From positions 45,882,001 to 45,942,000 of the forward strand of contig OZ076409.1 in assembly GCA_964187785.1 (NCBI GenBank): 60,000 nucleotides of DNA, given 5' to 3'. Positions 15,369 through 54,301 of the stretch are shown here, in pieces. The notes beneath the pieces were generated by a model, which searched no databases, was not told the origin of the DNA, and worked only from the letters and a program-made list of their open reading frames with translations. Position numbers and translations under genes: made by a program. The number at the start of each line of letters is the position of its first letter. The stretch's first letter is position 1. This stretch comes from Amphiscolops sp. MND2022. Taxonomy: Eukaryota.

Positions 15369-16385
15369 ATCGGACTACTGGAAAGAACACACGCTAGAAT
15401 CAGAACATCGCTCAAAAACTCCATAGGTTAACGACGATTGGTGTGGCGCAAGTATAATCAAATAGCGGTAATGAACTACAACACGACCTACCATGAAATG
15501 TTAGGTTGCGAACTTTCAACCGTCTTTCACGGACGAATACCTTATAATGTACCCGACCTAAAATTAGGTATCAAGCCAAAGTAGAAAACTACGCCAAATT
15601 GAACAACTACAAAAACGAATTGACGAAGTGCGCGCGTCAGCAAAGGACAACATAATGCTGTCTTACCTTAAAGACAAGAAATAGAACCGAAAAGCGTCTG
15701 CAGCGCTACTTGAAATTTAACGTTTATTATTACATTCTTGTCCCAAAAGCCAGGAACCAATCGACAAAGTTTGCGTTCCAAGACTGCATTTGGACAGGAC
15801 CTTACATTGTGATAAAAATGCCGTCAAACAAAAATTACACAGTCAAAAAAATGGGACCAGATAGACGCCAACGTTACATCGAATAAAATTCGTCCCTATG
15901 CTCCAGATCAGCTTTGGCAGCAAAACCCAGTTTCACTGAGGTTATTGACAACGTCGAACCGTCGTCGCCGGACTTTTCCAATCTTATTCCCTATTTGGGG
16001 GATAATTCTTATTTACGACGTCCTTCACTCGTTGAAAGTCCAAGTAAACCCTCAAAGTCACCGCCTGTCAGATATCACCGTTGTCAGATATAATCTGAGA
16101 AAAGTAGCAATATATACCCTTCGACTTTATTCTAAACCTAATGCTAGTCCTAATTATCACGTCGACATTATAAAAAAAGGATTAATCAATAGTCCACACC
16201 AAACCGTTCTGTCTTTTGTACGGCTCCTCTACTGCGACTTTTTTTTATCTTGGAGCCTCGTTCAATTTTGCAAGACCTAAAAGTAGTACACTGCACGAAT
16301 ACTGCAAAAAGTAATGACAGCAAAAAATTTACAAGACAACAAACAAAAAATTAATCAAATGGCCACAACAACTATCCAATTACAA

Positions 16386-22000: not shown

Positions 22001-22566
22001 CATCGCCTTGTTCAACGCTGAGAACATTTCGGGTCTGTACTTGAGTTTAATTGCATTTTCGACTTCCTCGATGGGCTGTTCTGACTTTTTAAAGGTTTCT
22101 GTTCGTCGTAACAGTAACTCTACTATGTGTTTGTTGTAATCATTGCGAGCTAGGTTCTCATCAATTTTTTTCCAGCTCTACTGAGACCGACAGCTGTATC
22201 CTAGTAACTCACAACGTGGACATTGTCCGCTGAGATCTATAGAAAGTTTTCAATTTTGTCGAAAATAATCTTCCTGGTTTCAACCATTTCTTCTCGTGGC
22301 AATGGAAATCAGTTCCTTGAGTCACAACAGCTCATTCACCCAGAGACACAATAGCCCAATCTCCCACAAACACCATACCTCAATCTCCCTGCGGCACAAA
22401 AACACAATCTACCAGAGCCACAAAAGCTCAATATTCCAGAGACACAGCAGCACTGACTCCGAGAGTCAGACAACTGTTCTTCTTCGGAAAGATCCTCCAC
22501 TCCAGTTGTGTCCACCAACAAGTGAGTTGTCCTCTCCGTATTCCTCCGGGTCTTGGACGGACCAAA
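22001..22566 (-). mobile_element. Second, truncated BEL unit: PBS, 5' UTR and gag start downstream of a 3' LTR
   Basis: PBS at 22564-22545, GGGCTATTGTGTCTCTGGG UTR repeats, and MVETRKIIFDKIENFL...KLKYRPE, paralogous to 32648-32256 plus 28949-28880. Confidence 0.8.
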
Positions 22567-23443
22567 TGTAACGGCTGCTTCCCCGTATCTTGTGCTGAAG
22601 CGTGACAAATTTTACATCCCCCTGATCCGTTGTTTAGTTCTCTTTACCGTTACTGAACAAGCCTGGTTTTCGTGTTTGTAAAGGTCTGTATCTTTTAGTT
22701 GGTGGGTCCGATGCGATCCGCCGTGAGATCTCCTGCGGTCGCGCTTTTTACTAGAGTGGACTCTCTGAGATCCCTCACAAACGTCCAGCTCTGTCCAGAG
22801 TACCTTCACGCAATATAACTCTCCACCAATTTCCATTATGAGAGTAACTACTTGTTCGCTCTGTCTTCTAGTGAAAGATTGTAAAGATATGGGAAGTTAG
22901 GAATCTGTTGTCGTGAGGCTCAAATTGACCACTGCCATGCAGTCGTTAAATCTCTAACTAGTTATGGTAATTAATCGGTTTACCATTCTTCAGTAACTAT
23001 ACATCGAATTATGTAGTTCGGATATAAGGCATTCAACGGTAAAAAAGAAAGTGAAAGGTTGTGTAAACAAACCATTGTTGACTATTTCATGTTTCTCATG
23101 TGGTCCAAACAGAATTTTTACACAATGTGAATATCATCAATTTCAACAGTTACATTTTGAAAAGTCATTCGGCTAAACAACAAAGTTTACAAAGTAACTC
23201 AATGACCTTGAACACCACACATGTGAAGGGTACAGGGGAAATTATTGGGTGAGATGGCCTTCAGACATGGCTGGGGTGTTTGTGTTTGCTACATTCATAG
23301 GTAGGCCAAGTTTCAAGTCTCTGCGATGAAGAGTTGTCGAGAAAACCAAAAAGGGGGATTCGATTTATTCCCATTTGTTTTCTTAAAAATTCTATTGACG
23401 TTGCGAAGAGTTTGAATCTTATTTTCCAACTAGCAATATTCGA
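22567..23443 (-). repeat. BEL/Pao LTR (5' end and PPT deleted)
   Basis: Aligns with 32649-33558, ends AAGCAGCCGTTACA, and is directly preceded by the pol end RRPVRKLAP. Confidence 0.85.
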
Positions 23444-30524: not shown

Positions 30525-32255
30525 CACAGACTTAACTGTGACTGAAGATGTTGAAATATGATTTGTTTATTTTAGAACTACTGCTTTTAGGAGCTGTTCG
30601 TTTGCCACGATGGTGACCTAGGTAGGACCTAGCTAGGACAGTCGCTTGGGCCGTGTCATAACTTGCGAGGATCTTGATGAAGGAACTACTCAAGTGTACA
30701 TGTACAGTGAGCTGAAACATACGTCAGTGCATCCAGAAAAATACAGGTGTAAACAATTTCTGCTACTGCTAGCTATACAACAGGTGCAGCTCAGAAGGTA
30801 GTCTTATTCTCATGAAGACGAAAGCAGCAGACTACCTCAAGTGTGATTCGTCGAAGTTTGGAGATTCGGTCCACTTGACAGCAACAACAAACTTGAATCA
30901 CATATGCCGAACGAACGCTTAATCTTTGAATACGTGTACATATATATATTTATCTTCATCTATATTTGTTTTGCTGATGCTGTAAAAATCTTTCATTTGA
31001 AAATTGTTACACTCTTTTTTTTAATTTACTTTCGAGAATCAAGCATTTCTTTCAAGTTACTCTGAAGGTTCAGGCATTTTAATCCAAGTTACTTCCAAGA
31101 TCAGGCATTTTCTTCCAAGATACTACCAAGATCAGACTTTTTCTTCCAAGTTACTTCCAAGATCAGGCAATTTCTTCCAATTTACTTCCAAGATCAGATA
31201 TTTTTTGCAAGATCTTGCAAGACCAGACATTTTCTTTCAAGATCTTGCAAGACCAGACACTTTCTTGCAAGATCTTCCAAGATACCTGCAAGAATAATGC
31301 ATTGTCTTCCAAGATCTTGGAAGTGAAATCTGACAGATTCTTGCAGAAAATGTATGGAGGTTCGACTTATTCAATTCAACAAAAAACTATCAAAATATTG
31401 GATCAAACAAAAGAAAGATCTTATTATATTACAACTAATTCAATCGTTGTTCCCCACTATGGTGATGATAAACTATGTGTCTTATCTCCCCGGACTTAAA
31501 TGTACATGTGACCGAAGTTGTTGAAAAATGATATGTTCATTTTAGAACTGTCAGTTTTGAGAGCTGCACATTTAAATTGCCACGATACAAAATTGCTAAT
31601 GATGCCACGATGCAAAATTGCCAATGATGCCACGATGGTGATCTAGGACAGCCGCCTGAGCCGTGCCCTAACTTGCGACGATCTTGATGAAGGAGCTACT
31701 CAAGTGTACAAGTACAGTGAGATGAAACATACGTCAGTGCATGCAAAAAACAGAAAATGTACAGGTGTAAACAATTTCTGCTACTGCTATATAATAGGTG
31801 CAGCCCAGAAGGTAGTTTTGTTCTCATGAAGACGCAAGCAGTAGACTACCTCCAGAGTAATTTGCCAATTTTGGACATTTGACAGCAACAAACTTGAGTC
31901 ACGTATATATGGCGAACAAACGGTTAGGCTGTAATCTTTGAATACATGTACGTTTTGATCTTTATCTTCAACTATATAAACATAGTTTTGCTGTAAAAGT
32001 CTTTCAATTGGAAAATTTCAAACTCTTTTTCCAATTCATTTTGAAATTCAGGCACTTTTTCCCAAGTTACTCTCAAGAATCAGGCAATTTCTTCCAAGAT
32101 ATTTCCAAAATTAGGGATTTTCTTCCAAGTTACTTCCATAATTCACACATTTATTGCAGGATCTTGCAAGACCAGATATTTTCTTCCAAGATCTTCCAAG
32201 ATACCTACAAGAATAATTCATTGTCTTCCAAGATCTGACAGAAATTCGACAGGGG
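30525..32255 (+). repeat. Tandem duplication of the right ~800 bp of the TIR element (30525-31367 and 31490-32255)
   Basis: Shared blocks such as GATCTTGATGAAGGA(A/G)CTACTCAAGTGTACA and GGTGTAAACAATTTCTGCTACTGCTA. Both units end in TTCGAC. Confidence 0.85.
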
Positions 32256-32648
32256 TGGCATCTGTTTGTCGAAACAGTAACTCTACTATCTGTTTCTTGT
32301 CATCATTGCGAGCTAAGTTCTCTTCTATTGCTTTTACAGACCTGCCGTCCCCAACAGCTGTATCCCAGAAAATCACAACTTGGGATTTGTCCGCTGACTT
32401 CTTGAGAAAGTTTTCAGTTTTTGTCGAGACTTTTCTGTTTGGATTCAACCATCTTTTCGCCTACCACTTAAATTCAGTTCCCAGAGACACAACAGCCCTA
32501 TCTGCCACGGACACAATAGCCCAATCTCCCAGAGACACGGTAGCACTGACCCCAGGAGTCAGGCACCTGTTTTTCATGGGCAATATCTTTCAATTGTTTC
32601 CACAAGTTGAGTTGTCTTCTTCGTCTTCGTCCGGGTCAACGAACCAAA

Positions 32649-33558
32649 TGTAACGGCTGCTTGCCCTTATCTTGTGCTGAAGCTTGACAAATTTTACACC
32701 ACCCTGATCAGTTGTTTATTTCTGGTTACCGTTACTGAACAATCGGGGTTTTAGAGTATGTAAAGGACTGTATATTTTAGTTGGTGGGTTCGATGCGATC
32801 CGCCGTAGGATCTCCGTTGATCGCGTTTTTTACTTGCGTTGTCTTTCCCTCACAAACTTCCAGCTCTGTATCTTCACGCATTCCAACTCTCCAACAATTT
32901 CAACCATGAGAATAGCTCTGACTTCTACCAAAATTTGTAAAAATTTGAGAAGTTGATGCATCTCTTGTGGTGAGACTCGACCTGACCATAGCAATTCAGT
33001 CGTGAGAAGTTCTAGCTTGTTATTGCAGATATCTGATTTACAATTCTTCAGTAACTTTACGTCGAAATATGTGGTTGGAATACTTGCATCTAAAGGTAAA
33101 AACAAAAGTTAGTGGTTATGTAAACAAAGCATGGATGGCTATACCATGTTTGTCATGTGATCCCGAAACTAAGTGTACACAATGTAAATATCATCAATTT
33201 TATAATAGGAGAGATATGATATGAGAGATACATTCTAAAGATGTCATATGGGTCAAACACGAAGTTCACATTTTGACGCGATGACTTTGAACACCACACA
33301 TGTGAGGGGTAAAGGGAAGTTATAATGGGTGAGTGACTTTGCAACTTAGCTGGGTTGTTTTTGGTAGGTACATGCATATGTATGCCAAGTTTCAAGTTTC
33401 TACGATTAGTGTTTGTCCAGAAAAACTAAAAAAAAGAGTCCAATTTTTCTCTCTTTGTTTTTTTTGTCAAAATTTCAACTACGTTTTTAAGAGTTAAAGT
33501 TTTTTCAACCACTATGTTCCGAATCAAATTTTTGATTGTTGATGACTGGTGCCAACCA
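32649..33558 (-). repeat. 5' LTR of BEL/Pao element
   Basis: Starts TGGTTGGCACCAGTCATC, ends AAGCAGCCGTTACA, and is followed by PBS TGGTTCGTTGACCCGGA (32646-32630). Confidence 0.85.
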
Positions 33559-35952: not shown

Positions 35953-38900
35953 CAAATGTCAGCATTCACAAGCGTAGTCCGTGAGCATTTGGACCCCTTG
36001 GTCAAAGCGGACCAGTGTGCTCAATATGTTGACGATATTGGAATTGCAGCACACCCACCTGAAGAACTAACCTTGAACTTGTTTTTCAGCAATTGGACAA
36101 AGCCGGTATTAAATTAGGCATGGGTAAATGTGAGTTTGGACAAAAACAAATCGAGTACATGGACAAAACAATTCCAGTACAGGTATTGCTCCCATTGAAA
36201 AACGTGTAACAGATTACTTGAACAAGTTGAAACCTCCAAACTCTGTGAACGCATTGCAACGTTACCTCGGATTTGTCAATTTTTACAGGTCTTACATCAC
36301 CCGTCTGGCAGATAAATTTTAATGTTTACAGGAACTAATCAAGAAAGACGTCCCATTCAAATTGAACCAACAGCATAAAGATGCAATTTTTGAAATTATT
36401 GAAAGTCTTTTGAAAGCTACTAAAGTGTCTCTAAAATTACCATTACCTGATAAACAATTGGTAGTAAAGTGTGACGGCAGCGAACACGCTGCCGGCTATG
36501 TTTTGTTGATCGAAGATTATGCTGACCCGTCAGCAAAACAGACATATTCCCCCGTCGCCTTTGGTTGCAAGAAGTTTCAGGGAGGCCAGATGTCTCTAAC
36601 AATGTATGCTAAGGAGTTTTTAGCGATGCACTTTGCATTTGATGAATTTGGCCACATTTTGTTGGGTGCGAAGAAACCCATCATTGTTATGACTGACAAT
36701 AAGGCCTTAACCATTTTTTCAGGCGAAGCACATCCCGCCTTCACTTTGGAGTTCTTGTGACCAAACTCTTCAGTTCAATTTTTTTAGCACACGTTCCAGG
36801 AGTTGAAAATCCCGCAGTGGACTACTTATCTCGCCGTGAGATTAGACCTGAAGATCGTGTTCATTTAAAATTGACTAATACCATTCCTATTCACAGAATC
36901 GAAATCGACATCGCTTCCAGAACACCGAAGCAGGAAGAAGACGAGCCTGACTACTTTCCCACAAGCGAACCACTCAGATGCAAACGCCAGATGAATGTAA
37001 AAGAGCAGAATTTGGCAGTTAACACTGATGTGGCCCACGACGATGGGAAAGGGATGAAGTTACCAACTGTGAGAGGACAGCGGCCTCACATGACTTCATA
37101 GCGAACGACAACCTTCTGACGTACCGCCTCACAGACGTGGACGAGCCGATACAGCTCACCCAATTCATCCGTAAAGTATCATTATCAAGCCCGGTAATGA
37201 GTCAGGTTAGCCCCGCTGAGGGGATCGATCTAATTGAAAGTCAAAAAATTTGCAACACCCAGTTAACATGCAAGACCAGTTTTTCCAAAAATTGTATAAA
37301 AATCGTAAAAGACTACAAGTTGTAAACGGTGTTCTGTACAGCCAGTTTTTTGACCACACGGGACTAGAGTCTCATAAGCAGCTAGTCGTTCCTGAAGACT
37401 ACATCACGAAGATAATAAGAGCTTTGCATTAAAAGCCCAGTACAGGGACACCCTGGTTTAAACAATATGTTGTTTGAAATACGTAAAAGATACTACTCCC
37501 CAAACCTAGCCTGTAAAGTTCAAAAAGAACTAGACTGATGTGAAAATTGCATGAAATCAAAAGGTGTAAAAGAATCTCAACTACGTCCACCGTTACAGAA
37601 AATCTACGACCCAGGCGACGGACCAGAAGACATGTTAGAAATAGATATAGTTGGTCCACTCCCGGCGTCGAACGGTTTCACACACATTCTAACGGCAGTC
37701 GATTTTTTTTCACGCTACCTGTTCGCAGTTCCGTTGAAACGACCTGATACGCATTCAGTCGGCAAAGGACTACTATCGATCTTCACGAGACACGCCTATG
37801 TGCCCAAGCACATACTGACGGACAAAGGTACGGCGTTTACGGCTGAACTACTGACCGAAATCGCGAAATCGGCTGATATACAATCTCCCACGCCACGATA
37901 AAACACGCACAAACAATAGGCATGGTTGAGCGAACTCACGCAAAACTAAAAAAGATCCCTAAAATTAGTGTTAATGCAGATAGACCACGATAGGACCGCT
38001 ATGTCGACATAGCAATCATGGCCCATAACACGACTTACCACGTCTCCCTGAAATGCACTCCGACAGAGTGTTTTCACGGTAGAATACCTTACAATCTACT
38101 AGACCTGCAATTCCGCAATGCAAAGAAACCGGCTGAAACAAAGTGCAAAGACGTGAATGAAATTCTAAACAAAATGAATTCCATATTCAGAGACAATTTA
38201 GATAACATCATATCCGCTTATCACAAGTACAAAATAAACTATGATAGGAAAGCACGAGCACAGCCACTGAAGGTGAACGAATTTGTATTCCTACTAGACC
38301 CTAAGTACGACTCTCAACAAAGCAAGGAAGAGTTTAAAACTTTCTATTGAAAAGGACCGTACAAGGTGATGAAAGTGCTATCCGATAGTAACTACATCAT
38401 CCGCAAAGTAAGAACACACAAGACTTAGTGCGTACCCAGAATGCGACTGAGACTGTCCAAACCGGAATTTCCTACTGACGACATCAACGTGTCCAAACAC
38501 CTTTACCCCGACAAGGAAAGGGTTGAAGACACAGACATATTCGATTCGAATATTCCGACAACCGACGAAGTAGATCAGAACAAAAACGACAATCTAGATC
38601 AAGACTTGGTCGAAGATGAGCCTTCAGAAGAAATAGTTGAAAGACAAACAGTACAAAACCGAAGTCCACCACTCAACAGCACGCCTGAAATAGACACGAG
38701 AAAAGAAAATCCACAAGTAGAAGTTGATCACATCGACTTTAGACCACCTACAGTGCGTTTTGGAACACATGAAGAAATTATCCTACCGCCTCCCCGCAAG
38801 GAAAGTAGGATAAGAGTACCTCTGAGAGATGAACCACACGAACGTCATTCGCAACAAACGCAAACGCGAACCGACGATGAGGAAAGGATGAGTTCTAGAC

Positions 38901-39037
38901 CGTCTAGAAACAATCAAAGTAGGTACAGGTTACGCGCGAATCCTACACCGAAAACATATCCAGACTTCCTCATTCATGAAATTACCACAGCCCGAAAAGC
39001 CTTGAGAAAGACAAACAACGTAAATGTGACGATTTGA
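35953..39037 (+). pseudogene. Gypsy D: pol from RT core to end (RT, RNase H, INT), 5'-truncated
   Basis: CAQYVDDIGI; KCDGSEHAAGYVL...YAKEFLA...VMTDNKAL; EIDIVGPLP...AVDFFSRY...LTDKGTAF; MAHNTTYH; terminal SRYRLRANP. Confidence 0.93.
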
Positions 39038-39916
39038 CGCAGAAACATCAGATTTCCAAACACACGAAGTGTTAAAAATGAATAAACTCGTCAACTTGAA
39101 CCAAATACATGCAATTCCACCTTAAAACGAACATGAAGATGTAAAATGGATGAACAAACACTAAAATTACATGCAAAACGAATCGCAACAAAACACGATG
39201 TAAAACGGATGAATAACTACCAAAAACTCCATGAAATGAACAGTAAAAATTTACAAGATGAGAAACGGATGAAATCACATAAAAACTCACACTACACCGA
39301 CAAGATAGAAAAAAGTGATGGTTTAGCCAACAAACGACTTATACACATGAAAACATTTTCTAACGATGTATTTGTGATGGAGAATACCATCAAACAGATT
39401 AAACTCATCGCCGTATTTTGATAATACTCTAGCTCGGCTAGAGGATGAAATAGCGATGAACTTGGTCAAAATATATCACATACATGAAAATCATTTAAAT
39501 GGATGCATTTACGATGGGAAACACCATCAACATGAGAATGAAACCATCGTTTTAATACCACAATACACTAGCTCGGCTAGAGGTTGGGAAAGGGATGAAT
39601 TTCATTCACCGATAGACTCAACTAAAAAAAATAGCTAAATGACCAATACATGTAATTGTATACCTGCCAAATAACTAAATGACGTCATCTAGTCAAACGG
39701 ACAGCCACAAAAAACATGTACCCAAATGAACAGCCTGACAATGCAATACACATGTAATGACACTTAATGGATTAGATAACATATGCAATTCACGCTAAAA
39801 TCAATTAAATCTAAATGAAAACTAACGAACCAAACAATCGAAAATACATGAAATCTACTAAAATACATGCTAAACAAAAGAATCTACAAGACAACCACAA
39901 AACGGAAAAAGGAGTG

Positions 39917-40128
39917 TGCAACCCCGGCAAAAGTCGGTTTAGGATGACTAAAATAGCTTTGTCAAAAACCAAAATCATTCCTTCGTGCTGGCTGGCGTTT
40001 CTCTGAAAAGAGTGCTTGTTGGTTGATGTGGGGGCTCACAACCATTTCGGATGAAGCTTTGCTGCGTGGGTAAACCAGCGGCAAGTGGATTCTCAGTTAG
40101 TTTTGAAGGGCCCCTGGGACCCGGGGTT
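39917..40128 (+). other. GC-rich foldable island preceded by a PPT-like tract (structured RNA or LTR start)
   Basis: GGAAAAAGGAGTG|TGCAACCCCGG. AACCCCGG (39920) pairs with CCGGGGTT (40121). Internal hairpins CTCT-GAAA-AGAG, TGGTTG/CAACCA and TTGCTGC/GCGGCAA. Confidence 0.45.
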
Positions 40129-40511
40129 TTGTGACGACAAGAGCCTGTCCAAATCCACGAACAAAAAAAAAATCATTAAAATATATGAAACTATCAATGG
40201 AAAATAACAAAACATGTATTAAGCTTAAACCGATTCAGAATAAAACCCAATAATGGGGCAACCCATTAAAACGAACACAAAAAAGCAATACGCCAAGACC
40301 ACGCACGACCTAAAAACAAACATGTAAACGCACGATATCGCAACTCTAAAAACTCACCAAAAAACAAAACCGTAGATGTCAATCATTGAAAGTGGTCATC
40401 TTGACTGTCAAATGGACAAATCCATTTCGACAATTAATAGTAAACAACCTACCGTAAAAAAACAGCAATTCTATATATAGACCGAAACAACGAGAATTCA
40501 TTCATCTGAAA

Positions 40512-40633
40512 GGAGCGGTGCAGCTCCACTCACCCAGCTCTGGACTGATACCCTCAGTAACTTGCACGCCTACAGGCTATCAGTACCATTGCTGAGTGAA
40601 CATCTATATTCGGCGGCCACGCAAGCGGCTGCC
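40512..40633 (+). ncRNA. Candidate cis-acting structured RNA element
   Basis: Stems GGAGC/GCTCC, ACTCA/TGAGT, ACTGATA/TATCAGT, GCC/GGC and GGCGGCC/GGCTGCC with a GCAA loop. Possible loop-loop pairing GTGCA/TGCAC. Confidence 0.4.
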
Positions 40634-41464
40634 ACATAAGATCGGAAAAAACTGCATGCAATAATTTTCAAAATTGACAAAATCTAGGCTGAATAACGAC
40701 GGTATATCACATGTAAAGAAAGTGCATGAAAATCCCTAAAAAACACGACATTAACCGACATGTACTTATCAAAACGCACAACGAAATAACACCGAAAGAA
40801 CGTAAACATCAATGAAACAATTGCACATGATACGAAAATACATTTCTGACTACGTTATACCAACATAATTATGTAAAAGAGCAAAAAACGCCAAATTTTC
40901 GAACGCACGATGAAAAAACGATGAATTTTGCAAATAAAACCCATGTAACAACATGCAATGTTTCTTATGTAACGCACAATGTAAAAAAGATAAAAACACG
41001 GATTTCGCGACGTCGCTCAGACGACTGAGGAAAACATGATGAGAATGAGATGAAAATCAAAGCTAAAATACATATGTATTTGTCATATTACTACGAGATG
41101 TAACAACGATGAACACTGGAGCTAGCTGACGTACCAATAAAGAAACACCTAGAGTAAAACATCGACGTAAAAATTACCCTGATTAAACGACTATTTCAAC
41201 CCACATAACCTAAAACGCTGATAACTCAAGAGAAAAACAAATTACGGGAACCAAAAAATATAAATATTGATTCACACCACGCCCAGTTTACATATTTTCC
41301 GCCGTAGCGTCTGGATTTGTATCCTTCTCATTAACTTCTTTGCTTTGCTTTCTTTTCATTGATGTTTTGTTTTCTCATTGGTCTCCCAATATACCAATGA
41401 CTACACTAATATGTAAATAAAATAAATAATACAGCAGACAACAACCAACGCAAACAGTTAAAAA

Positions 41465-42392
41465 TCATTTTCCAATCTCGGGACTGGCAGTCCGCTCCCC
41501 GGTAACATTGTAGCCAAGACTGGCATACAATTGGAAACGATAATCTTCCCCAGCCACGATGCCGACGTCATCCCACAACGTGTCCTCTGTAATCTCTGCT
41601 AAGTCAACGAGCCTCCTGTGCGACTCCATCACTTCTTCTAACAGAGGCTCACTGACACTTCCGTAGCTTCGCACATGATTAGCAGACAAATAACCAGAGA
41701 TTACAGCACATATACAGCTCATGACATCGCTCGACCGGTGCCCGATTCCTTCCCATGTAGCATTGGAAGTGTCCTGCACTCCCCCTCCCAGACAGAAGAC
41801 AAATTGTAGCAGGCTCTGCGCTCCACGACTGGAGCAGTAACGCAACAGATCAACAGCTGAACAGTCGGCAGTCGCCCCAGCTGGCCTAGGTTCGCGCCGG
41901 AAAGCAGTTGTATATTCCAGGAATCCGAGCTCCATTTGACCCTGCTCGACTAAACTGATCCGCCCCATTTCCGCAAGTAAGCCAGTAAAATTGTGAATTT
42001 CCGCCAAAAGATCAGCTTCCGCAACACAAACCAGACTGGAGACACTTCGGACGAAGGCAAGATCGTCGCGAATCCCTGGTAGCAATAATACATTCTTGAC
42101 GACAGACAATAAGAAACTCGGCACCCGCGACACATCCTCATCATAGACCGTCACATCTTCTGTCAAATTATGATCAGTGCTGAAACTCGCGATAAGGGCT
42201 TGTTGTTCAATCTCTGACAGGACACAACTGTCCAATCCACGAACAGCCACCGACGGATGTCCAGGGCAGTGGGCAGGCTCTCTTCGTCAACCAGTATGGT
42301 CAGCAAGCTCTTCACAAAGGAGGCACTCTCGATCGCCCAGTAACAAATCCGCAATGATGAGGACCCGAAGCTCCTTTCGGACGACGTCACTA
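41465..42392 (-). CDS. Antisense accessory ORF-A (copy 2), unknown helical protein, ~308 codons, one in-frame stop
   Basis: Acceptor TTTTCATTTCAG at 42393. The frame reads SDVVRKELRV...RECLLCEELADHTG*RREPAHCPGHPS into the 261-aa ORF 41465-42250. Homolog at 16386-17430. Confidence 0.65.
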
Positions 42393-42414
42393 CTGAAATG
42401 AAAACCACACCAAC

Positions 42415-42601
42415 ACTATATACTATAAATAATCAGACTGATTGGGATCCCGACTTCCACCCTCAAAGTCAGATCCAGCGCATCTACTGGCCCGTTTCCT
42501 GCAGCAAATCGAAGCAGACACAGTACGTCCGTCCAATTGGCCCCTAATTCGTCGCACACATCAGCAAGAGTCCACACATAGACTTCCCCGGATAAAATCG
42601 C
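42415..42601 (-). CDS. Putative small exon of antisense cassette
   Basis: Poly-T plus TTTAG acceptor at 42602, then an open frame AILSGEVYVWTLADVCDELGANWTDVLCLLRF...; GC-rich between AT-rich spacers. Confidence 0.4.
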
Positions 42602-42705
42602 CTAAACAAAAAAAAACAAGTTCCACATAGATAAAACAACCCTATTACAATACAAACTGTTACCAACATAAAAACAACAGAATTAGATAATGGGCACAAT
42701 TCATT

Positions 42706-43227
42706 TTAACACTCAAATAAAAGCGGAATACTACACTTACTTGCAACAAATGAGGGCAGCTCAACAACAAAAGGATCCCTGACAAATCTTTTTAGTCTTT
42801 TCTGCAGATGATTCAGCACCACGTGAATATCCGTCCCGCCTGGCACCTGCCCTCCCACGTCCACAATTGTCCGACTGACTTCAGACAGTACCAGCGTCTT
42901 CACCTCCAGTGATCCGACTCCCTTGGTGCTTCGGAAAAGTCCACCCAGCTGTGGCAACGCGTCACAATACAGTCCACGTGGAACTGGCTCTCCGTGCATA
43001 CAACACCACATGTTAATTAGCCACGTGATGATTCGTCTTTCCCAATCCCGTGCCAGACCAAAACTGAAGACGCAGTAATGACTGATCCCTTCTAATGAAC
43101 ACACTGTGACCGTACCAGTCACTCGCCCCTGTCCAACAGCCAGATGAAAGTTACTGAACCCACTGTTAGACCACAGAGTGATTAGCCTCTTCATTGCGTA
43201 CGGCCACAAACTTAGCAGAACCACACT
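42706..43227 (-). CDS. Antisense accessory ORF-B (copy 2), unknown protein
   Basis: 172-aa ORF preceded by acceptor GTTTTAG (43228), with a GTAAGT donor at 42740. Homolog at 17633-18171. Confidence 0.6.
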   Translation of the reverse strand, partial: SVVLLSLWPYAMKRLITLWSNSGFSNFHLAVGQGRVTGTVTVCSLEGISHYCVFSFGLARDWERRIITWLINMWCCMHGEPVPRGLYCDALPQLGGLFRSTKGVGSLEVKTLVLSEVSRTIVDVGGQVPGGTDIHVVLNHLQKRLKRFVRDPFVVELPSFVASKCSIPLLFEC

Positions 43228-43514
43228 CTAAAACGAACGTCAACATTACTGTACTTTAAATCACTTTACACTTAAAAACAACCCGATATCATTTTATTAG
43301 TCGACAGCCCAACCCCCATCCAAGTTCAACACTACCCATAGAATACCACCCAACCAATGAATTTTCACACTCATGCAAAACTCGAAAATTAAAACAAAAG
43401 AAAATACGAATTATCATCACGTCATTCAGTTCGCACTTAACACCGAACAGAGAGCCCACACCTCCCACAAATTAGTTACGCCGGTGAACTGACAATCCCG
43501 ATAGATTGCGTCAA

Positions 43515-45669
43515 TCACCATGCACACGAGCAGATGCACTGTCTCCTCGCACAATGAATCCTCTTCCTGCTCTTCCCCCACACACGTCGTCCAGCTCCCT
43601 CCAGTTCAAACACTTCCAGCACACTGAAAGAAGGGCACGTCTCAACGAACGGCACTGTTGCACCGCCCAGGCTGGTCCGGCACTCCGCGTTCTCTTCAGT
43701 GCTCATCAGCGACCCGTCGCGTCGCCGCAACGGTAGATCCCGAAACAAACGAATCAGACAGTCCAAACGATGGTGACGGAGCCCACGACAGTACTCCATG
43801 CATGTAGTGATACCTCGGCTAGCAACCTTGATATCACGCTTGCCCAGTAAGCATCGCACGTATGACAGCCGAGACTGATGGTTTCGCGCATAGCCTAGTG
43901 CAAGCCCACAATACTCATGGGTAAACCACCATGACTTGATCACCTTTCGTCCTGCAAACACATCACAACCGTACTTTAAACAACAGTACTACCACAAAAG
44001 TCATTAACAAAGAAAAATGAAAAATCATCCTCCTCACATCCTAAGAATCTAAGAGCCGTTAATTGCTTTAAATTGAAAATCAGGCGGAGAGATGAAAAAA
44101 TGATGTAAAATAATATTTTCATCAGGAAATACACACGGACAACAAACAATGGATAAGATGAAAAAGAGATAGTTTCTGCGAACCGAGAAAATGAAAAATG
44201 AAAAATAAAACGAATTGAACTGAAACAATTGAACGATGAGAAAGAGATGTAAAGTCGAAGAAAAATCTTGAACAACGAAAGGAAATGTAAAACCGAAGAA
44301 AAATTATAAAAGATGGAAAAGAGATGAAAATTACGAAAAGGACTGAAAAACTAAAAAGAGAAACATCCCGTTTGAAAACCTTTAGGTGATGAAAAAATGG
44401 TGAAAAATTGAAAACTTACAAGTAAGAATCGAGTAAATTGAAAGACTAAAAACGATAGGAAATAGATGGAAAAGTAGAGAAATTTTAAAGTTTCCAATGA
44501 AAACGAAAAAACAAAATGTAGAAAAGAAAAGAAAACTGAACAACGAAGGTAAGCGAGTCCACGATATTGCCAAACCGATACCTAACAAGTTTTTAAAAGC
44601 TGTTTAGGTAACCTGGCAAACGTGTAGCGATCATTTCATCATCGGGATCAATGAGGCTGGGCCCCATTGGCGAAGTTTCTTCCGGGCCAGACTCAGACGC
44701 AGAAGCAGCTAGCTCGGAAACAGATTGCGCAGCCAATAACCCGTCGACCGTAAAGTCATTCGGTGGAGCAACAGAAACGTCAGAGTTGGCAGGAGAGAGG
44801 GCATCTGGAAGAGCGAGATCAGGTGCTGCAGTTTCAATGACGTCATGTACAAGAGGAAGCGCAACTGGACCGGCATCAAAAGGTGCATCACACACAGTGT
44901 CAACATCACGGTACTCCACTACAGCTTGCACTGCCTTGTCTTCGCAATCACAGACGGCATCGGCGACCGCATTTGCGTATTGCACCTCGTCCCTGGTAGA
45001 AGTGCCACGACAAAGGGTCACTCGCAGAGGAGGAGGACTTCCAGGAGCAGACCCACTTCCCAGATACCTCTGGAAATTCGGCGACAGTACTGAAACAGGA
45101 GCCTTTGACAACGGAGAACTGGCAGCATTCAGGGACAGGTCTTGAAGAAAAGATGAGAACTCCAGCGGCGGAGGACCTCCTTGCGTACCAGCACCAACAC
45201 TGGCAGTACCGAAGTCGCTGGTCCCAATCCCGATGGAGTACGTGATGGGACGAGGCCTGGGTGCATTGATTGGAGTAGGGCCTGAAAGAGAAAATTGTCA
45301 CTCACCCATCAAAATATCGATTGGCGGGAAGATGAGCAAAACCAACACAAGAAATCCAAAATTTCATCTCAAATTCATCCTAGAAGAACAAAAGTGGTGA
45401 ATCGACCACAAAAGACTGAGAAGTTCGAGACTTCATCTCAAACTCATCCTAACAAACACTATGGCGAGTTGACCGCGAAGGACATTACATGAAGATGAGA
45501 TGGAAACATCGGAATTACAACGTAATGTTCGGACAACGCCTTAGAAAAGGAAAATTGGAAACTTTGTACTCACTGCATTGCTGCACACTTTCACGCAGCA
45601 TGTCCCTCAGGTATCGGTCGTACCACCCGAAGGTAATACTGCCTAGAGAAGCATACCACGGGAAATGAT
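43515..45669 (-). CDS. Spliced antisense gene X (exons 45669-45574, 45281-44613, 43951-43515): Pro/Ser/acidic region plus Cys/His-rich C-terminus
   Basis: Acceptors TATTTCAG, TTTCTCTTTCAG and TGTTTGCAG; donors GTGAGT (45573) and GTTACC (44612). All junctions are phase 1 and join about 400 stop-free codons. A possible further exon at 45885-45762 is cut by the BEL insertion. Confidence 0.65.
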
Positions 45670-45885
45670 CTGAAATACCAAGTGAGAAATCAACGTTTGG
45701 ACGAACGACGATGAAGAATACTACCCTCGGAAACTTGACTACTACAAAAATCTTCAAGTACTTGCTTTGACGACAGCTGCCAGTCTCAGAACGACTGCGA
45801 CGAAGATGAGCGGAAATGCGTAAAGGAAATCGTGGCGATTTTCAACCGACTTTACGAAGAGTGGTTCACGAAGAGTGTGTTGTTG

Positions 45886-46783
45886 TGTTGGCGCCAGTCA
45901 TTTGCGAGATCAGAAACTCAAATCCGAACGTGACTGATGAAACTTATATCTCAAAACTCTTCGAAAATTTATCAAGATTTTAGATGGAAAAATACAAGTC
46001 TAAGCAAAAATGACCCTATGTAATAAAACACCACCCCCCCCCCGTCAAGGTAAACCGCTCACTCAATCACCCTGAAACTTGACACACATATAGTGGTGGT
46101 GCTTCCCTAACTTTTCACTCTTAACAAGCTACCCCGTATCTCCCCTGGGTTCAGAGCAAGTAACACGCAAAGAGACCTAGGTCGGACCCCATGAATTACC
46201 CAATTTTCGATGTATCAATTATTATATGATTTTCTCATATGACCTTGAAGGAAATTCATCTCTGTTGAAATTACTGATATTTACATTGTGTAAACATACT
46301 TTCTAACCCACCTGACCAACATGCCAAAACTACCATATAGTTTGTTTACTTAGCTAATAACTTCATTTTATGCTTTAAATGTCATTTATTTATACAACAT
46401 AATTCAACTGATATTTGCTTATATTTACTGTAGAATTGTAAACCACATGTATACCATTATTAGATAGAGATTTTAACGACTGAATAGCTGTAGTCAAGTT
46501 GGGTCTTAGGACCATTTCAATTCTCAATTCATTTCTTCACCTTTTTTCGACTTTTCGCTAAAGACTTAGGGCGATTAAGTTAGTTACTCTCAACTTGTGG
46601 AGAGTTGGACGTGTTAAGAGACAAGGAAGAAGTGCAAATCGGGATCATTGGATCCTACTAAGTCAAGATACAGTAATTTCAATCTAAGAAGCAAGCAGTG
46701 TTCGGTAACGATCCGCAGTGCCGAGCATCGAATTCAGGGCGGCGTAAAGTTTGGTCAAGTGAAGGGATCAAGCAGCCGTTACA
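45886..46783 (+). repeat. 5' LTR (898 bp, TG...CA)
   Basis: TGTTGGCGCC...GCCGTTACA; direct repeat at 53512. Confidence 0.95.
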
Positions 46784-46785
46784 TT

Positions 46786-46802
46786 TGGTCCGCCGACCCG
46801 GA
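46786..46802 (+). promoter_or_regulatory. Primer-binding site, probably tRNA-Tyr
   Basis: TGGTCCGCCGACCCGGA, 2 nt after the LTR; resembles the tRNA-Tyr type PBS TGGTCCTTCGAGCCGGA. Confidence 0.75.
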
Positions 46803-47216
46803 CATCATCGATTGGGCGGACATCATCACTTTTGGGGCGCACAAAATCAATTGGGCGGACAACTGGATGATCATCTGATTGCTACACAGCCAGAACAGCA
46901 CTGTGCGAACAAGTGAACGTGTACAGTGAACGACAACTAGTGGTGATCTATACACAACTGTGTGTGCTGCAAAGTGGTCTCATCTGGGCTCTCCTTGGGG
47001 AATTGTGTACTCTGGGGCTTGGGCTACTTCTGCAGGCGCTGAAAGATTGTATTCGAAGTGTTTTTACTGGAAACTTTGGTTTACAGTGTACTCTGGGAGT
47101 TTGGGCTATTGTGTACTCTGGGGTTTTTGGGCTACTTCATCGGCTTGTTGGGAATTGTATTCACAGCAGAGTTTGGACTCCTGTGGTGAGCTAGTGTACT
47201 CTGGGGTTTTGGGATA
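46800..47216 (+). repeat. 5' UTR short repeats
   Basis: GGCGGACATCATC-like units (46800-46875) and GTGTACTCTGGG units (47005-47216). Confidence 0.7.
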
Positions 47217-47223
47217 GTTCAAA

Positions 47224-50200
47224 ATGGCTGAACCTAAGAAAATTGATTACAAAAGAATTGACAACTATTTGAAGAGTTCTATCGACAAGCCACAATGGGA
47301 AAGCAACATGAGAGCAATTCAAAACTTTGAGGCAAAATTGGATGAAATACATGCTGAGCTGCGCAAAGCAGACGTAACGAAGGAAAAACTCGCAGACCTT
47401 CTACCGAACCGACAAGACCTACTGCCTAAATGGAAGAGACTCGTCGGGGCGAACACAGCACTCTTGAAAGTCAAGTATCAGCCAGAATGGGCGGATAACA
47501 AAGGCGACCGATTCTGCAGATATCGGAATGAATTAGATTCCTTGGAAACACGACATAAAATCATTAGTCAGATGCTCACAATGATGAGGAGCCTAAAGAA
47601 TGAAGGACAGTTGAAGGAGTTCATACAACTTCAAAACTCCAAAGAGAAATGTGATGAAATGCTTCAGAAAAACGAAGATGAAATCAATAAAAATCGAGAT
47701 ACACTTTGCAACTCAGAGGATTACAAATCATTGGTAGAAACAAACGAAGAAACCCTCAAAAGGAGAGATGAAATTGTGGCTGAGATGGATGAGTTGTTGA
47801 AACACAGTGGAGATACTTCAATCTACAGTGAGTTGCATCGTGTGGAGGGAATAATGGCCCGTGCCAGGGTGAATTGGCAAGAGCAACAACTAAAGTCCCG
47901 TGACACTTCTCCTCAGAAGAATGCGAATGAAGAAATGGCACAAGGTACCGATAGACCCTATTCGTTTGAGAATCGTTGTGTTAATGATGTGAATTCGCTA
48001 CCTGAAGAAAGAGTTCAGTGTGCAAGCAAGGCACATTCAAAGGGCAACAGAACATCAGTTAGTTCAAAGTCAAATACTACAAAGCGATTGATGCTCCTCG
48101 AACTGGAAGCAATGAAGAAACAAGAAGAATTTGATGAACAACTAGCCGCCAAGAAACGCGAAGCAGAAATCCGGAAGAAACACGAGGAAATGGATAACCT
48201 CACAGAAGAACTCGAAATAGCTAAACTTCAAGAGGAGAAGGCAAGGGCTAAACGAATCGCAGAGAAGGAAATGGAAATCGCTCGGGCGGAGGGAAGCAGA
48301 GCAAGCACAAGTTTGCGAAACATCTCGCCAATACCCATCCACAGCGATCCGTTTGAAAAGGTACCTTCTTGGCTTGATGAAAATGGATGTGACGAAAAAA
48401 CAACGAAGTTTGGAGAAGAGTTATCCAAAATCGCACTGGCCAACGAACCTATCAAACCACAACCTGACCCTTTGCCACACACAACGCAAATGTCCCACCT
48501 GGCTGCTAAGACAGCGCAGCCGACCATGGTAAAGGATAGCACGTCGGCCAGTCAGTTCGCGCCGAACGCTGCATCAGCGAAGATGCAAATGAAAAAGACA
48601 TTTCAACAGCATGTGCAGTTTGGGAACTTCGAACCTCCAAACCAACCATTGTTAAGTAACCAATTGAAAAGTGGCACCTTGCCACCACCAGTGGCACCCT
48701 CAGCTAACTACTCGGCCCCCATACAGAGTCAATTCGCGACAACAAGAAATGAAGCAGTGAGCCTACCAGCCAGTTTGCCGAAGCTGAAGCTGGCAGAATT
48801 CTCAGGCGACCCATTGGAATGGCCTTAGTGGTCAGGGTTGTTCCTCTCGACTGTCCATGCTGCGAACATTGACACCAGTCTGAAGATGAATCACCTCAAA
48901 ACGCTGGTCACTGGAAAGGCAAAGGAAGTAATAGCTGGACTAGGCTACACTGGAGACATGTATGACATTGCTTGGAATACCTTGGTCGCGCACTTTGGAA
49001 GACCACAAGTGGTAGTTAACGCACAATTGAGACGAATATACACCTTTCCGCCAGTGAAAGCGTACGACTCCGTAGCATTGGTCAAATACTCAAGAATAGT
49101 TTCAAGTTGTGTACAAGTTCTGACGCAGATGAACTATGTTGGCGACTTGCAGTCAGAAGGCGTCCTGAGCAGTGCGACCAGAAAATTGCCAATGAACATG
49201 AAGACGAAATGGTTGGCGCACGCGAGACAAAATGCTAATTACTACATGGGGCTGGAAGCGTTCAGCTTATGGTTGCAAGAGGTAGCAGCAGTGCAGGAAG
49301 ATGTTCTCATGACAGGCAATCCCAACGCCGACAAATCGAAATGGACAAGTAAAGACAAACCAAAGAACTCTACGTTCTCAACCTTTGCTGACGACAGTGC
49401 CGACAAAAAGACTGGTCATGATTGTCCATTGAAAGATGGTAAACATCCTTTGTGGAAATGCGAGAAGTTTCTGAAGATGACTGGTCAAGCACGATATGAG
49501 AAAGTCAAGGAGTTGAAACTCTGCTTTTGTTGTTTGGCTGGGAAACATGTAGTGAAAGACTGCACATACAAAGCGTGTGGGGTCAAAGGTTGTAACAGGC
49601 GGCACCATCGATTGCTACACCGCGAGGCAAACGAACGGCCGAAAGAAAGTGGAGTAGAAGACCCACAACAGAAGGCGGAGGCGAACTCTGCATTTTGCTC
49701 ACTGAAGAGCAGTGGGATTCTGCCAGTTATACCGGTCATCATCCAAATTGGAAAAAAGCAAGAATCAACCTTGGCGTTGTGTGACTCCGGAACGAGTCTA
49801 TCGTTCATTGACAAGGAATTAGCCAACAAGTTAAATGCTCACGGGGAAGAAATTGACCTGAGTGTGGCTGGAATACATGGGACAAATGATGTAAAAGTGT
49901 GAACGATTCACGTTGGGAATTCGTGGCAAGGGATTGAGCGACACACACCACATGACAGTTTACACTCATCCAAACATAGACGCTGGAACAAAGACCTACA
50001 ACTATCAGGAGCTCAAACTTGCCTATCCCCATTTGTCGGTCCTAAGCGAAGAAACATTGAAACTCAAAGATGTAAAAATGATATTGGGACAAACCTGCTA
50101 CCATATACATCGGCCTGTAGAATATAAAAGCTGCACGAATGGTGAGCCTTGGGCAGTGAAAACGAAACTTGGATGGACTCTCTGTGGACCACTTCCACAG

Positions 50201-53200
50201 CAAAAGGCTGTGCAGATGACTGCATCTTGCGTAACAGCCTCTGAAGATGATGCACTGGCAGAACAGATAAAAACGTGGTGGGACATAGAATCCTATGCGT
50301 CTCGCTGCGATGTGTCTGGAAGGTCCAAGGAAGTTGAGAAAAGGTTGCAAATGCTGGAACAAACCACAAAGTTTGATGGTGAAAGATATGAAGTTGGTCT
50401 TCTCTGGAAAAGAAATGACTTGAAAAGAAATTCACTTGTAAAGAAACCAGAGTTGAAGAAACTCTATCAAGACTCTATCAAAGTAGATGTTGAAAAGGGA
50501 TTCGTCAGAATCCTAAAGCAGGAAGAATTGGAAGCTACAAAACTGGAAAGACAGTGGTATGTTCCACATCACCCAGTAGAAAACCCAAACAAACCAGGAA
50601 AGGTGAGGCGAGTGTGCAACGCAGCATCCAAATTCCGTGGAATTTCCTTGAACGATAACCTCTTGACAGGGCCGGACCTACTACAGAATCTGATTGGAAT
50701 AATCTTCAGGTTTAGAGAACAAAGGATCGCCATCACCGCCGACATTGAGGCGATGTTCCTCCAGGTGAAAGTACCACCGGAAGATTGTAAAGTGTTGAGA
50801 TTTCTATGGAGAGACAATCAAAATGAACCCGTTAGGGGGTATGAATATGGAAGACATATCTTCGGAGCCAAAAGTTCGCCAACTTGCGCCAATTTTGCTC
50901 TGCAACAAGTTGCCAAAGATAACGCACACGAGTCCCCACAATTTACTAAACTGATAATGCGAAACTTCTATATGGATGACTTCGTCAAGTCTGTCCCCAG
51001 CGCGGAGCAGGTTATTGAAATCTACAATATGTTGAGAGCGATGTTAGAAAGGGGAGGCTTTCACTTAACAAAATGGATTAGCAACTGCGAACAGACTATG
51101 ACGTCTATCGACCAAGCAGACAAGTCACCGTCCTCTAGTAAAACCTTTGAAGCTGAACCGACTTCTCCATCAATCTTGGGACTGCAATGGAACGTTGACG
51201 CAGACAATCTGGAAGTCTGCAGAGGCATGCAGAAGGAGATACCGGTGAAGATAACGCAGCGAGCGGTGTTATCCCATGTTTCAGCAGTGTTCGACCCTCT
51301 GGGAATAGTGTCTCCTTTTACTATCAGAATGCGACTGCTACTAAAATCTATATGGAAGGAGAACGGACAGTCGTGGGATAAAGAACTGAATGAAGAAAAT
51401 CGACATGCATTCGAGAAATGGGCATCAGAGATGATTCGAGTGAATCAAATGGTCCTTAAAAGAACATACTTCGAGTCTGGAGTGATCAAAGTTGATCTAC
51501 ATATCTTCTCAGACACTTCGTTGGAAGCAATGTGTATGGTTGCCTATTTGAGAAAGCAAGAAAATGGCGAAGTGACCTTTGTGATTGGCAAATGTAGAGT
51601 AGCTCCAATACGAAACATGACAGTGGCTAAGTTGGAGATGCAGGCAGCAGTTTTTGGAGTAAGACTGCGAGAGCTTATTTTGGAAGAACATGATATTGAA
51701 GTAGACCAAATTGTACATTGGACAGATTCAACTACGGTCCTACAATGGCTTCACGCAAGCAACAACAAACAACCGGTCTTTGTGGCAAACTGCGTTTGTG
51801 AAATTCTCGAAAATTCAACTATCGATCAATGGCGGCATGTTGAAGGAAAACTGAATCCTGCTGACATTGGAACTCGGGGAATGACAGTTGAAGCCCTAAA
51901 AGAAAGTGAGTGGCTCACAGGGCCGGCCTGGCTCACCGAGACAGAGGTTGCCTGGCCTAAGGCGCCCGAAAAATTGCAATTCAGCATTCAAGAAGAGCAA
52001 GAACCAGTCCTGGAAGCTGCTGTAATGGAACCCGCATTCGAATGGGAAAGATTTGGGTCTTTCAAGAAAATGATTCGAGTGCTCTCATACTGCCTAAGAT
52101 GGAAGAAAAAGAATTCTGGAGAAATTCTAACAGTGGAAGAACTCAATGCGGCAAAACTGGCAATTTTGAAGCGTTGTCAGAGGGAAAGTTTTCATGATGC
52201 CTACGAGAAGATCTACAAAAGGCAGCCGTTGTCGGCTTCAGATCAATTAAATAAATTATCGCTGTTTCTGGACGAAAATGGATTGCTGCGACTACATGGC
52301 CGACTGCAGCATTCAAGATCAAGTTATGAGGTCAAACATCCGATCTTGTTGTCAGCAAAGCACTATGTAGTCATCAAGTTGATTGAAGATGCTCATCGAG
52401 CGAATTTTCATGAAGGCACAGAATACGTCAGAAGTGTTCTGAGGCAAGAATACTGGATTATTGGATTGCGAAACGCTTTGAGGAACGTCAAAGCGAAATG
52501 TGTTAAATGTAGAAAGCAACGAGCTGGAGTGTCTCAACCATTTATGACTGATTTACCGCGAGAGAGATTGCAGGAACGAGTATTCCCCTCTACCAACACT
52601 GGAGTTGACTATTTTGGTCCCTTTGAAGTGAAGTTTATGCGTAAGACCATGAAGAGATGGTGTTGTCTCTTCACATGTTTGACAACTAGAGCAGTACACA
52701 TTGAAGTCGTTCCATCTTTGGAAGCAGAGACCTGCTTAACTGCTATCACACGGTTTATTGCCCGTAGAGGTAAACCTGCTACAATTTTGAGCGATAATGG
52801 GACGAACTTCGTGAGTGCAGCCAAAGAAATGAGAGACTGTATAAATGCATGGAATCAGTCAGACATTGAGACGTCGCTAGCTCAAAAGGACATCAAATGG
52901 AAATTCAACCCTCCAGGAGCCCCTCATTTTGGAGGAATCTGGGAACGATTGGTTCGAAGTTGTAAAAAAGCGATGATAGCTGTATTGGATGGGTGATCCT
53001 TGACAGACGACGTCCTTATAACAACTATGTGTTTAGTAGAACAGACTTTGAATGCTAGACCACTGACTAGTGTTAGTGACGATCCGGATGACCTGGAAGC
53101 TTTGACATCGAACCACTTCTTATTGGGAAGAGCTAATTTAGCCACACCATTCCTACCAGTTGCTCAACGTTACACAGATTTGCGACGAGTATTTCGAGTG

Positions 53201-53563
53201 TCGCAAGCTTATTCAGATATGATTTGGACTAGATGGACTAAAGAATATATGCCGGAGTGGAATGTGCGTAATAAATGGAACAAAGATGACGTGAGACAGC
53301 TGAAAGTCAACGATTTGGTTTGGGTCGTGGATGAAAATGTGAAGCGGTCTAACTACAAGATGGCGAGAGTATTTGAAGTGCAAGAAGGAAGCGACGGCAG
53401 AGTTAGATCTGCGACAGTGGTAACAAAAGATGGCAAACTCAAAAGACCAGTAGTGAAACTGGCACCCCTATTTTTTGAGAGTGTTTTTCGGGAGAAAAAC
53501 AGTTCCGGCAATGTTGGCGCCAGTCAATTGCGAGATCAGAAACTCAAATCCGAACGTGACTGA
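47224..53563 (+). pseudogene. BEL/Pao gag-pol polyprotein, with two premature stops (48826, 52994) and one frameshift (~49900)
   Basis: Coiled-coil N-terminus; PKLKLAEFSGDPLEW (DUF1759-like); three Cys/His knuckles; protease LCDSGT; RT FYMDD; RNase H LHIFSD; INT GVDYFGP, SDNGTNF and GGIWERLV. The ORF runs into the 3' LTR. Confidence 0.96.
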
Positions 53564-54301
53564 TGAAACTTATATCTCAAAACTCTTCGAAAATTTATCA
53601 AGATTTTAGATGGAAAAATACAAGTCTAAGCAAAAATGACCCTATGTAAAAAAACACTACCCCCCCGTCCCGGTAAACCGCTCACTCAATCACCCTGAAA
53701 CTTGGCACACATATAGTGGTGGTGCTTCCCTAACTTTTCACTCTTAACAAGCTACCCCGTATCTCCCCTGGGTTCAGAGCAATTAACACGCAAAGAGACC
53801 TAGGTCGGACCCCTTGAATTACCCAATTTTTGATGTATCAATTATTATGTGATTTTCTCATATGACCTTGAAGGAAATTCATCTCTGTTGAAATTACTGA
53901 TTTTTACATTGTGTAAACATAGTTTCTAACCCACCTGACCAACATGCCAAAACCACCATATAGTTTGTTTACTTAGCCAATAACTTCATTTTATGCTCTA
54001 AATGTCATTTATTTATACAACATATTTCAACTGATATTTGCTTATATTTACTGTAGAATTGTCAACCACATGTATACCATTATTAGATAGAGATTTTAAC
54101 GACTGAATAGCTGTAGTCAAGTTGGGTCTTAGGACCATTTCAATTCTCAATTCATTTCTTCACCTCTTTTCGACTTTTCGCCAAAGACTTAGGGCGATTA
54201 AGTTAGTTACTCTCAACTTGTGGAGAATTGGACGTGTTAAGAGACAAGGAAGAAGTGCAATTCGGGATCATTGGATCCTACTAAGTCAAGATACAGTCCT
54301 T
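53512..54301 (+). repeat. 3' LTR, truncated by gap
   Basis: About 21 substitutions and one small indel versus the 5' LTR over ~790 bp (counted by eye). Preceded by GGGAGAAAAACAG. Confidence 0.95.

Follow-up and report, generated by a model that had tools for sequence, protein, structure and literature searches.

We wanted to establish what is encoded on the minus strand at positions 43515 to 45885 of a 60,000-nucleotide stretch of the Amphiscolops sp. genome (hereafter the window), where exon-like segments join without stop codons, and what the gene concerned, gene X, might do for the DNA that carries it. A DNA search of the genome returned 1,237 candidate copies, 40 of which were scored, and the interval is therefore a repeat. 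The carrier of gene X is a ~19.3-kb Ty3/gypsy LTR element with many young copies in the genome, in which the gene sits antisense between pol and the 3′ LTR; an antisense ORF at this place, conserved in most copies, is what characterizes an aORF-3R. Five of the six copies fetched with flanks were ~18-19-kb elements with 2.1-2.2-kb TG..CA LTRs, and a 5-bp target duplication was found in five of the six, the sixth (copy D) being split by a nested element. In copy A, the gag frame spans 521 aa and pol 1,703 aa. The RT-RNase H-integrase order in pol, the TG..CA LTRs, the PBS, and the 5-bp target site duplication (TSD) all identify the carrier as Ty3/gypsy. LTR identity was 99.2-99.9% in eight of nine complete elements and 96.5% in the remaining one; families with an intact antisense gene have been active very recently and are abundant. 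We also note that, in all three gypsy families described below, the gag frame has its start in the 5′ LTR and encloses the PBS (TGGTGACAGGAG).

In the window, the element survives as a decayed, 5′- and 3′-truncated remnant (35957..45885, plus strand), delimited by collinear blastn matches to six other copies. Its broken pol (35957..39037, plus strand) retains the end of RT, RNase H, integrase, and the C-terminal tail, as identified with Pfam (RT_RNaseH, E 2e-14; rve, E 4e-13), and is 82% identical to intact pol. A non-coding spacer (39040..41400) separates pol from the antisense gene, at the far end of which lies a conserved non-coding leader or promoter remnant (45690..45885, minus strand); a deletion of ~620-640 nt adjoining this remnant took exons 1 and 2. 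A BEL/Pao element (45886..54301, plus strand) abuts the gypsy remnant. The 3′ LTR of this element extends as far as a gap of 200 N, and sequence of the gypsy family does not resume past this LTR and gap. Over exons 3 and 4 and the spacer, the window copy is 86-95% like copy D, whereas over exons 5 to 8 it is 83-89% like copies A and E and only 65-78% like copy D. Judged by these switches in segment identity, the window copy is a mosaic of two subfamilies, a structure that fits cassette exchange. An equal deficit of 23 nt in the window copy and copy D was considered as a subfamily trait and rejected, the two being separate lesions.

A sequence-only reading of the interval had proposed a gene of three exons, and much of that proposal was borne out. 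The segments 45669-45574 (96 nt), 45281-44613 (669 nt), and 43951-43515 (437 nt) have AG/GT flanks on the minus strand, both introns are in phase 1, the join is free of stops for 400 codons up to a single terminal stop, and the internal exon boundaries are kept in other copies. The donor GTTACC, described as non-consensus, is indeed so, and this is a family trait, with GTTA in 23 of 24 rows and GTAA in 1 of 24. The three segments correspond to exons 3 and 4 and the first part of exon 5 of a longer gene. The end of the third exon at 43515 did not stand, since the homologous exon measures 560 nt in 27 of the 28 other copies mapped. One base near 43580 is absent in the window copy alone, among five aligned copies, and as a result of this loss KSRKRIHCARRQCICSCAW reads a conserved acidic stretch out of frame. 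The basic Cys/His end (HCARRQCICSC; 43515..43579, minus strand), on which a nucleic acid-binding role had been based, is thus a frameshift artefact that lies outside the conserved protein, and the shifted frame is not conserved in the 17 copies read but varies freely. For an upstream exon suggested at 45885-45762, all 11 other copies lack a GT at the proposed donor, and single-base indels occur within it, so this segment is conserved non-coding DNA. The proposed size of 400-440 aa also had to be given up, because the gene extends by two exons on its 5′ side, deleted in the window, and by three on its 3′ side.

The window copy carries lesions in most of its remaining exons. Exon 3 (45574..45669; all exons on the minus strand) encodes a 32-aa aromatic segment and is followed by intron 3 (45282..45573) and by exon 4 (44613..45281), which is acidic and rich in Pro, Ser, and Ala and ends at the conserved weak GTTA donor. 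Exon 5 (43415..43951), longer than the third exon proposed before, has the frameshift near 43580 and a 22-nt deletion near 43455 and has lost its donor; the BED-like C2H2 zinc finger that it encodes (43773..43853) has two of four ligands altered. Exon 6 (42741..43227), which encodes predicted strands of an RNase H-like core, is frameshifted near 42772; a deletion of ~144 nt removes the donor of exon 7 (42440..42601); and exon 8 (41465..42392), the last coding exon, has a frameshift near 42235 and an in-frame loss near 42040. As exons 1 and 2, including the ATG exon, are deleted, the window copy is a decayed gene fragment that would make no full protein. The window interval therefore represents a dead copy only, and the Cys/His motif is to be dropped.

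The intact gene was reconstructed from other copies. In copy A it consists of eight coding exons of 52, 156, 96, 654, 560, 486, 196, and 938 nt, separated by seven introns, and its predicted product is a protein of 1,045 aa with no internal stop. The exon boundaries are kept in 23 near-identical loci and in copies B, C, and F, and, with AG/GT, in 20 diverged copies with 58-65% protein identity in exon 8; the exon-2 acceptor and the exon-7 donor were placed by cross-copy conservation. For all eight exons, pN was lower than pS in each diverged pair, and the median dN/dS ranged from 0.02 in exon 3, the most constrained, to 0.35 in exon 2, as determined from exons that are open over their full length (12-22 per exon) in pairs with pS>0.15, which are not independent of each other. 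By this comparison of sequences, each exon is under purifying selection. Further, motifs in intron 4 directly behind the weak GTTA donor (window 44612-44575) are conserved in all copies, at distances not divisible by three. These motifs suggest regulated splicing, and the weak exon-4 donor may itself be regulated; retention of intron 4 would end the protein after its acidic N-terminal part. Upstream of the gene, a CCAAT-like box is kept in 10 of 11 family-1 copies (locus L031, ~5300-5330) and is also present in family 2, there with the word TGACGTCA (locus L041, ~6505-6570). It is a candidate for an internal antisense promoter and has disappeared from the window copy at its junction with the BEL element.

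What kind of protein this gene encodes emerged from its relatives. Homologous genes occupy the same place and orientation in two further gypsy families with the same PBS. The gene of the second family is a distant homologue of gene X with fewer introns, and a profile of families 1 (that of gene X) and 2 retrieved 632 proteins at E≤0.001, including P0025, an 890-aa single ORF whose close relatives are encoded, antisense and in the same place, by the third gypsy family in the genome. The three families have 3, 2, and 0 introns, respectively, in this domain. In one family-2 subfamily (L104:4476-5969, L105, and L106), the intron that follows the finger exon contains no stop and keeps the frame. 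The AlphaFold model of P0025 (pLDDT 84.7, 83 sequences) has the RNase H-like core with helical insertion of the Hermes fold. A Foldseek search with it gave 12 matches at E≤0.001, the best 10 of the 12 all being Hermes (top E 2.1e-6), and the next protein other than Hermes had an E value of 0.069. In a VIA comparison, residues 206-728 of the model aligned with residues 116-609 of Hermes (Z 13.7, rmsd 5.5, 388 aligned), and the next non-Hermes structure had a Z score of 6.9. Several ESM Atlas matches of P0025 were hAT-derived clusters, which serve as leads only, all matches being under 0.9.

Profile alignment carried this fold over to gene X. Exons 5 to 8 of eight family-1 copies (of 10 copies in which all these exons were open, 2 with a mismatched acceptor were left out) are collinear with 21 family-3 proteins over 498 columns (probability 97.6). 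The splice junctions of these exons are in register with the intronless family-3 ORF, which gives the predicted splicing of gene X indirect support. We conclude that the product of gene X is predicted to be a derivative of hAT transposase, the fold being that modelled for a distant intronless relative. Profile alignment revealed no sequence match between the gene X family and the genome's own hAT transposases, and no donor was found. Neither hAT nor BED Pfam matches were detected in the family 2 and 3 proteins, and a DUF4371 search of the genome gave no match anywhere, the controls being silent too. Taken alone, exon 8 was modelled poorly (pLDDT 57), its model had no match in Foldseek, and its similarity to the relatives was weak (E 0.23 and 0.048). 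Nothing significant came from searching PDB sequences with profiles A2, A3, A5, and A7 or with exons 3 and 8; among longer proteins, no homologue of exon 5 reached E≤0.01, and no counterpart of exon 3 could be detected in family 2 or family 3.

A further hAT-like feature of gene X lies in front of this core. Exon 5 opens with C-x2-C-x16-H-x5-H, a BED-like finger whose four ligands are kept in 17, 17, 16, and 17 of 17 other copies. The match to zf-BED (PF02892) has an E value of 0.0016 and 18.8 bits, below the cut-off of 20.6, and was seen in only 6 of 17 members; the spacing C-x2-C...H-x3-5-H/C of the hAT BED finger is nevertheless present in family 1 and is damaged in the window copy. The N-terminal 319 aa are acidic (net -29) and disordered-looking. 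Pfam scans of exons 2-8 and of the relatives gave no match to PF04195 (Transposase_28). An accessory protein that probably binds nucleic acid thus remains the best reading of the locus, as had been proposed from the window, the predicted BED-like finger and hAT fold taking the place of the Cys/His end.

Candidate targets of such a protein are short words repeated in the non-coding DNA of the elements. In family 1, GATGAA occurs 18 times in the LTR versus 2.2 expected, 20 times in the spacer versus 3.4, and 12 times in the window spacer versus 2.1, and all 21 family-1 upstream regions contain 15-29 occurrences versus ~4 expected, an excess above all shuffles. ACGGAG marks 12 of 13 family-2 regions and GGGAC all four family-3 regions. 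A family-specific word is therefore enriched in non-coding element DNA, as it is for VANC and TnpA. Because the words were picked from the same sequences, the first enrichment is post hoc; their test was spacing and other copies, with the reservation that related copies are not independent. Same-strand GATGA pairs at exactly 11 bp number 17 versus 0.35 expected in copy A and 6 versus 0.17 in the window copy, with counts of 0 and 1 elsewhere in the window. The pairs in the window copy (GATGA-N6-GATGA) lie in the spacer at 39257, 39444, 40909, and 41038 and in intron 3 at 45364 and 45433. ACGGA pairs at 11 bp and GGGAC pairs at 12 bp were found in small numbers. Over the whole genome, inside and outside these elements alike, the GATGA pair was counted 26,127 times versus 2,207 for the reversed pattern. 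The half-sites have ~2.2-2.6 of 6 flanking bases in common in four of five copies and 1.4 in the fifth, and with so few in common the pairs are not fresh tandem duplications. These results suggest that the paired GATGA words are the cognate binding sites of the antisense protein. We note separately that CATGTA is enriched in the spacer only (14 versus 1.6 in window 39040-41400; 17 versus 1.8 in the copy A spacer) and that GATGA pairs in LTR and spacer have a higher-order spacing of ~60 bp.

On balance, the sequences and models lead us to consider it slightly more likely than not that this eight-exon antisense gene is hAT-derived and that its product, with a catalytic triad that is probably incomplete, binds the element's own paired words and keeps the element transcribed. 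The reading that we favour, and hold to be somewhat more probable than not, is of a self-specific transcriptional activator or anti-silencer. An ancestral hAT gene would have become fixed in the spacer between pol and the 3′ LTR, and its introns may have been kept because the packaged RNA is of the opposite strand. Transcription of the gene would start at a promoter immediately within the 3′ LTR, and the BED fingers of a dimer or oligomer would read two GATGA words one helical turn apart. The acidic N-terminal 319 aa and the invariant exon-3 segment would recruit host factors, leading to activation or anti-silencing like that by VANC or TnpA. We advance more tentatively, with slightly less than even confidence, the wider proposal that a retrotransposon clade domesticated a DNA-transposon transposase as a private sequence-specific regulator, with protein and word diverging together by family (paired GATGA and paired ACGGA at 11 bp, paired GGGAC at 12 bp). 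This would constitute VANC-like self-activation in LTR retrotransposons of an intron-rich eukaryote, with tens of thousands of sites.

The strongest alternative places the protein at the DNA-intermediate stage, where it would bind the LTR words, pair the ends, and protect the cDNA or steer integration. hAT proteins are described as oligomerising and bridging ends via their BED domains (PMC10368747), and the density of words is highest in the LTR (18 versus 2.2). However, the internal spacer is as dense (20 versus 3.4), words also occur in introns, far from the ends, and the long acidic N terminus (net -29 in 319 aa) fits a regulator better, so we regard this alternative as unlikely. We give a lower probability still to a protein that acts through the words as a self-limiting repressor controlling copy number, or to words that are sites of host factors, with the protein acting through partners. 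The antisense position resembles that of the regulators HBZ and APH-2, as presented in PMC11963269, and the sign of the effect cannot come from word data. That the words could be host-factor sites also counts against the activator or anti-silencer that we favour, as do three GATGA pairs inside pol; yet a single host factor would not require a different word for each protein family, as is observed, and the very recent activity of the families with intact genes (LTR identity of 99.2-99.9% in eight of nine) and their abundance speak against repression.

A third alternative, that the protein is still active as a nuclease or transposase through a displaced active site, turns on its catalytic residues. 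hAT transposons are TIR-bounded units with an 8-bp TSD, whereas self-comparisons of the present elements gave direct LTRs only and no TIR-bounded unit, the gene lying within LTR elements with a 5-bp TSD. The genome's own hATs have the catalytic motifs, with 67-68 residues between the two Asp residues, CxxH, and RW. Hermes is reported to require D180, D248, R318, W319, and E572 (PMC6027215). We placed the corresponding positions by strand position and spacing, not by residue-level superposition. For the first Asp (Hermes D180), no Asp or Glu was found at the end of strand 1 in 8 family-1 copies or at position 278 in 21 family-3 proteins, and family 2 has Glu. At the second site, family 2 and the greater part of family 3 carry Gly and family 1 possibly Asp; in family 1, with the alignment ambiguous, an invariant Asp occupies the candidate second site (12 of 12) and Asp or Glu the candidate third (20 of 21). 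CxxH is missing at its expected site, and the RW motif has lost Arg and kept Trp (8 of 8 in family 1; 21 of 21 in family 3). Since none of the three families has the full catalytic set, cutting activity has likely been lost and the triad appears incomplete. The overall fold is kept, as are the Trp of RW and the family-1 acids at two candidate sites, but with the first Asp, CxxH, and Arg missing, a different subset of acidic residues kept by each of the three families, and LTR-type 5-bp duplications, we consider retained activity very improbable. Finally, the 400-440-aa protein with a basic Cys/His end, although its join is open in the window copy and the weak exon-4 donor could allow short isoforms, is scarcely credible given its off-frame, unconserved tail, the deleted ATG exon, the non-coding upstream segment, and the full-length exon 5 in 27 of 28 other copies.

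The activator or anti-silencer that we favour has partial precedents. Antisense ORFs between pol and the 3′ LTR are reported from plants and fungi as being of unknown origin (PMC7264820; PMC11963269), and PMC7264820 states that antisense extra ORFs have no similarity to other TEs; extra ORFs are also known in animal elements (PMC5408684; PMC6431247), and accessory TE proteins provide further context (PMC13547354; PMC12477816). The aORF-3R examples (maize Grande, rice RIRE2, Retand TRP28, and fungal Boty) share with gene X the place, orientation, presence across copies, conservation, and a proposed role as DNA-binding regulator (PMC7264820; PMC11963269). Unlike these examples, as those sources describe them, gene X has 7 introns, ~1,045 aa, a traceable hAT origin, and no PF04195 match. 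With hAT transposases as represented by Hermes (PDB 4D1Q and 8EDG; PMC10368747, PMC6027215), the predicted protein shares a BED-like finger followed by an RNase H-like core with helical insertion, and the element shares short repeated words with the cognate hAT element, Hermes BED being described as binding short subterminal repeats cooperatively (PMC10368747). It differs from them in that the first Asp, CxxH, and the Arg of RW were not found in the gene X family, which has no TIRs, possesses a long acidic N-terminal extension, and has an LTR element as its carrier.

HBZ is a spliced bZIP protein, and HBZ and APH-2 are unrelated to gene X in protein class and size. HTLV-1 HBZ and HTLV-2 APH-2 nevertheless resemble it as antisense accessory regulators near the 3′ LTR (PMC11963269). 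As for VANC of VANDAL, which is reported to bind dense family-specific motifs (PMC5735166), and TnpA of Spm, a family-specific short dense motif is found in non-coding element DNA (PMC5735166; bioRxiv 10.64898/2026.08.24.746577), and TnpA is described as transposase-derived, as is predicted for gene X (bioRxiv 10.64898/2026.08.24.746577). In these sources VANC and TnpA serve plant DNA transposons, whereas the carrier of gene X is a retrotransposon, its donor another TE class, and its role as a regulator a prediction. Literature searches, which covered mainly the main texts of openly accessible papers, found no description of an LTR element with an antisense gene of hAT origin. The origin and role of gypsy antisense extra genes were open; gene X offers a traceable predicted origin, from hAT transposase, and a candidate target, the paired words, and the long-proposed regulatory role thereby becomes directly testable by a binding assay. 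If our reading is true, one transposon class has domesticated the enzyme of another, and ~26,000 paired sites genome-wide could bring host loci under the influence of the protein.

Further repeats were observed elsewhere in the window. Several LTR-like sequences related to the BEL LTR, solo or partial, lie at 6567-7077, 14849-15373, 22557-23334, and 32639-33413, and a 31-bp degenerate tandem array is duplicated at 31015-31317 and 32025-32236. A second decayed antisense gene, similar to that of family 2, is located at 18151-16675 on the minus strand (profile E values of 8e-20 and 2e-42; 28% identity), adjoined by a broken gypsy pol at ~12198-15884.
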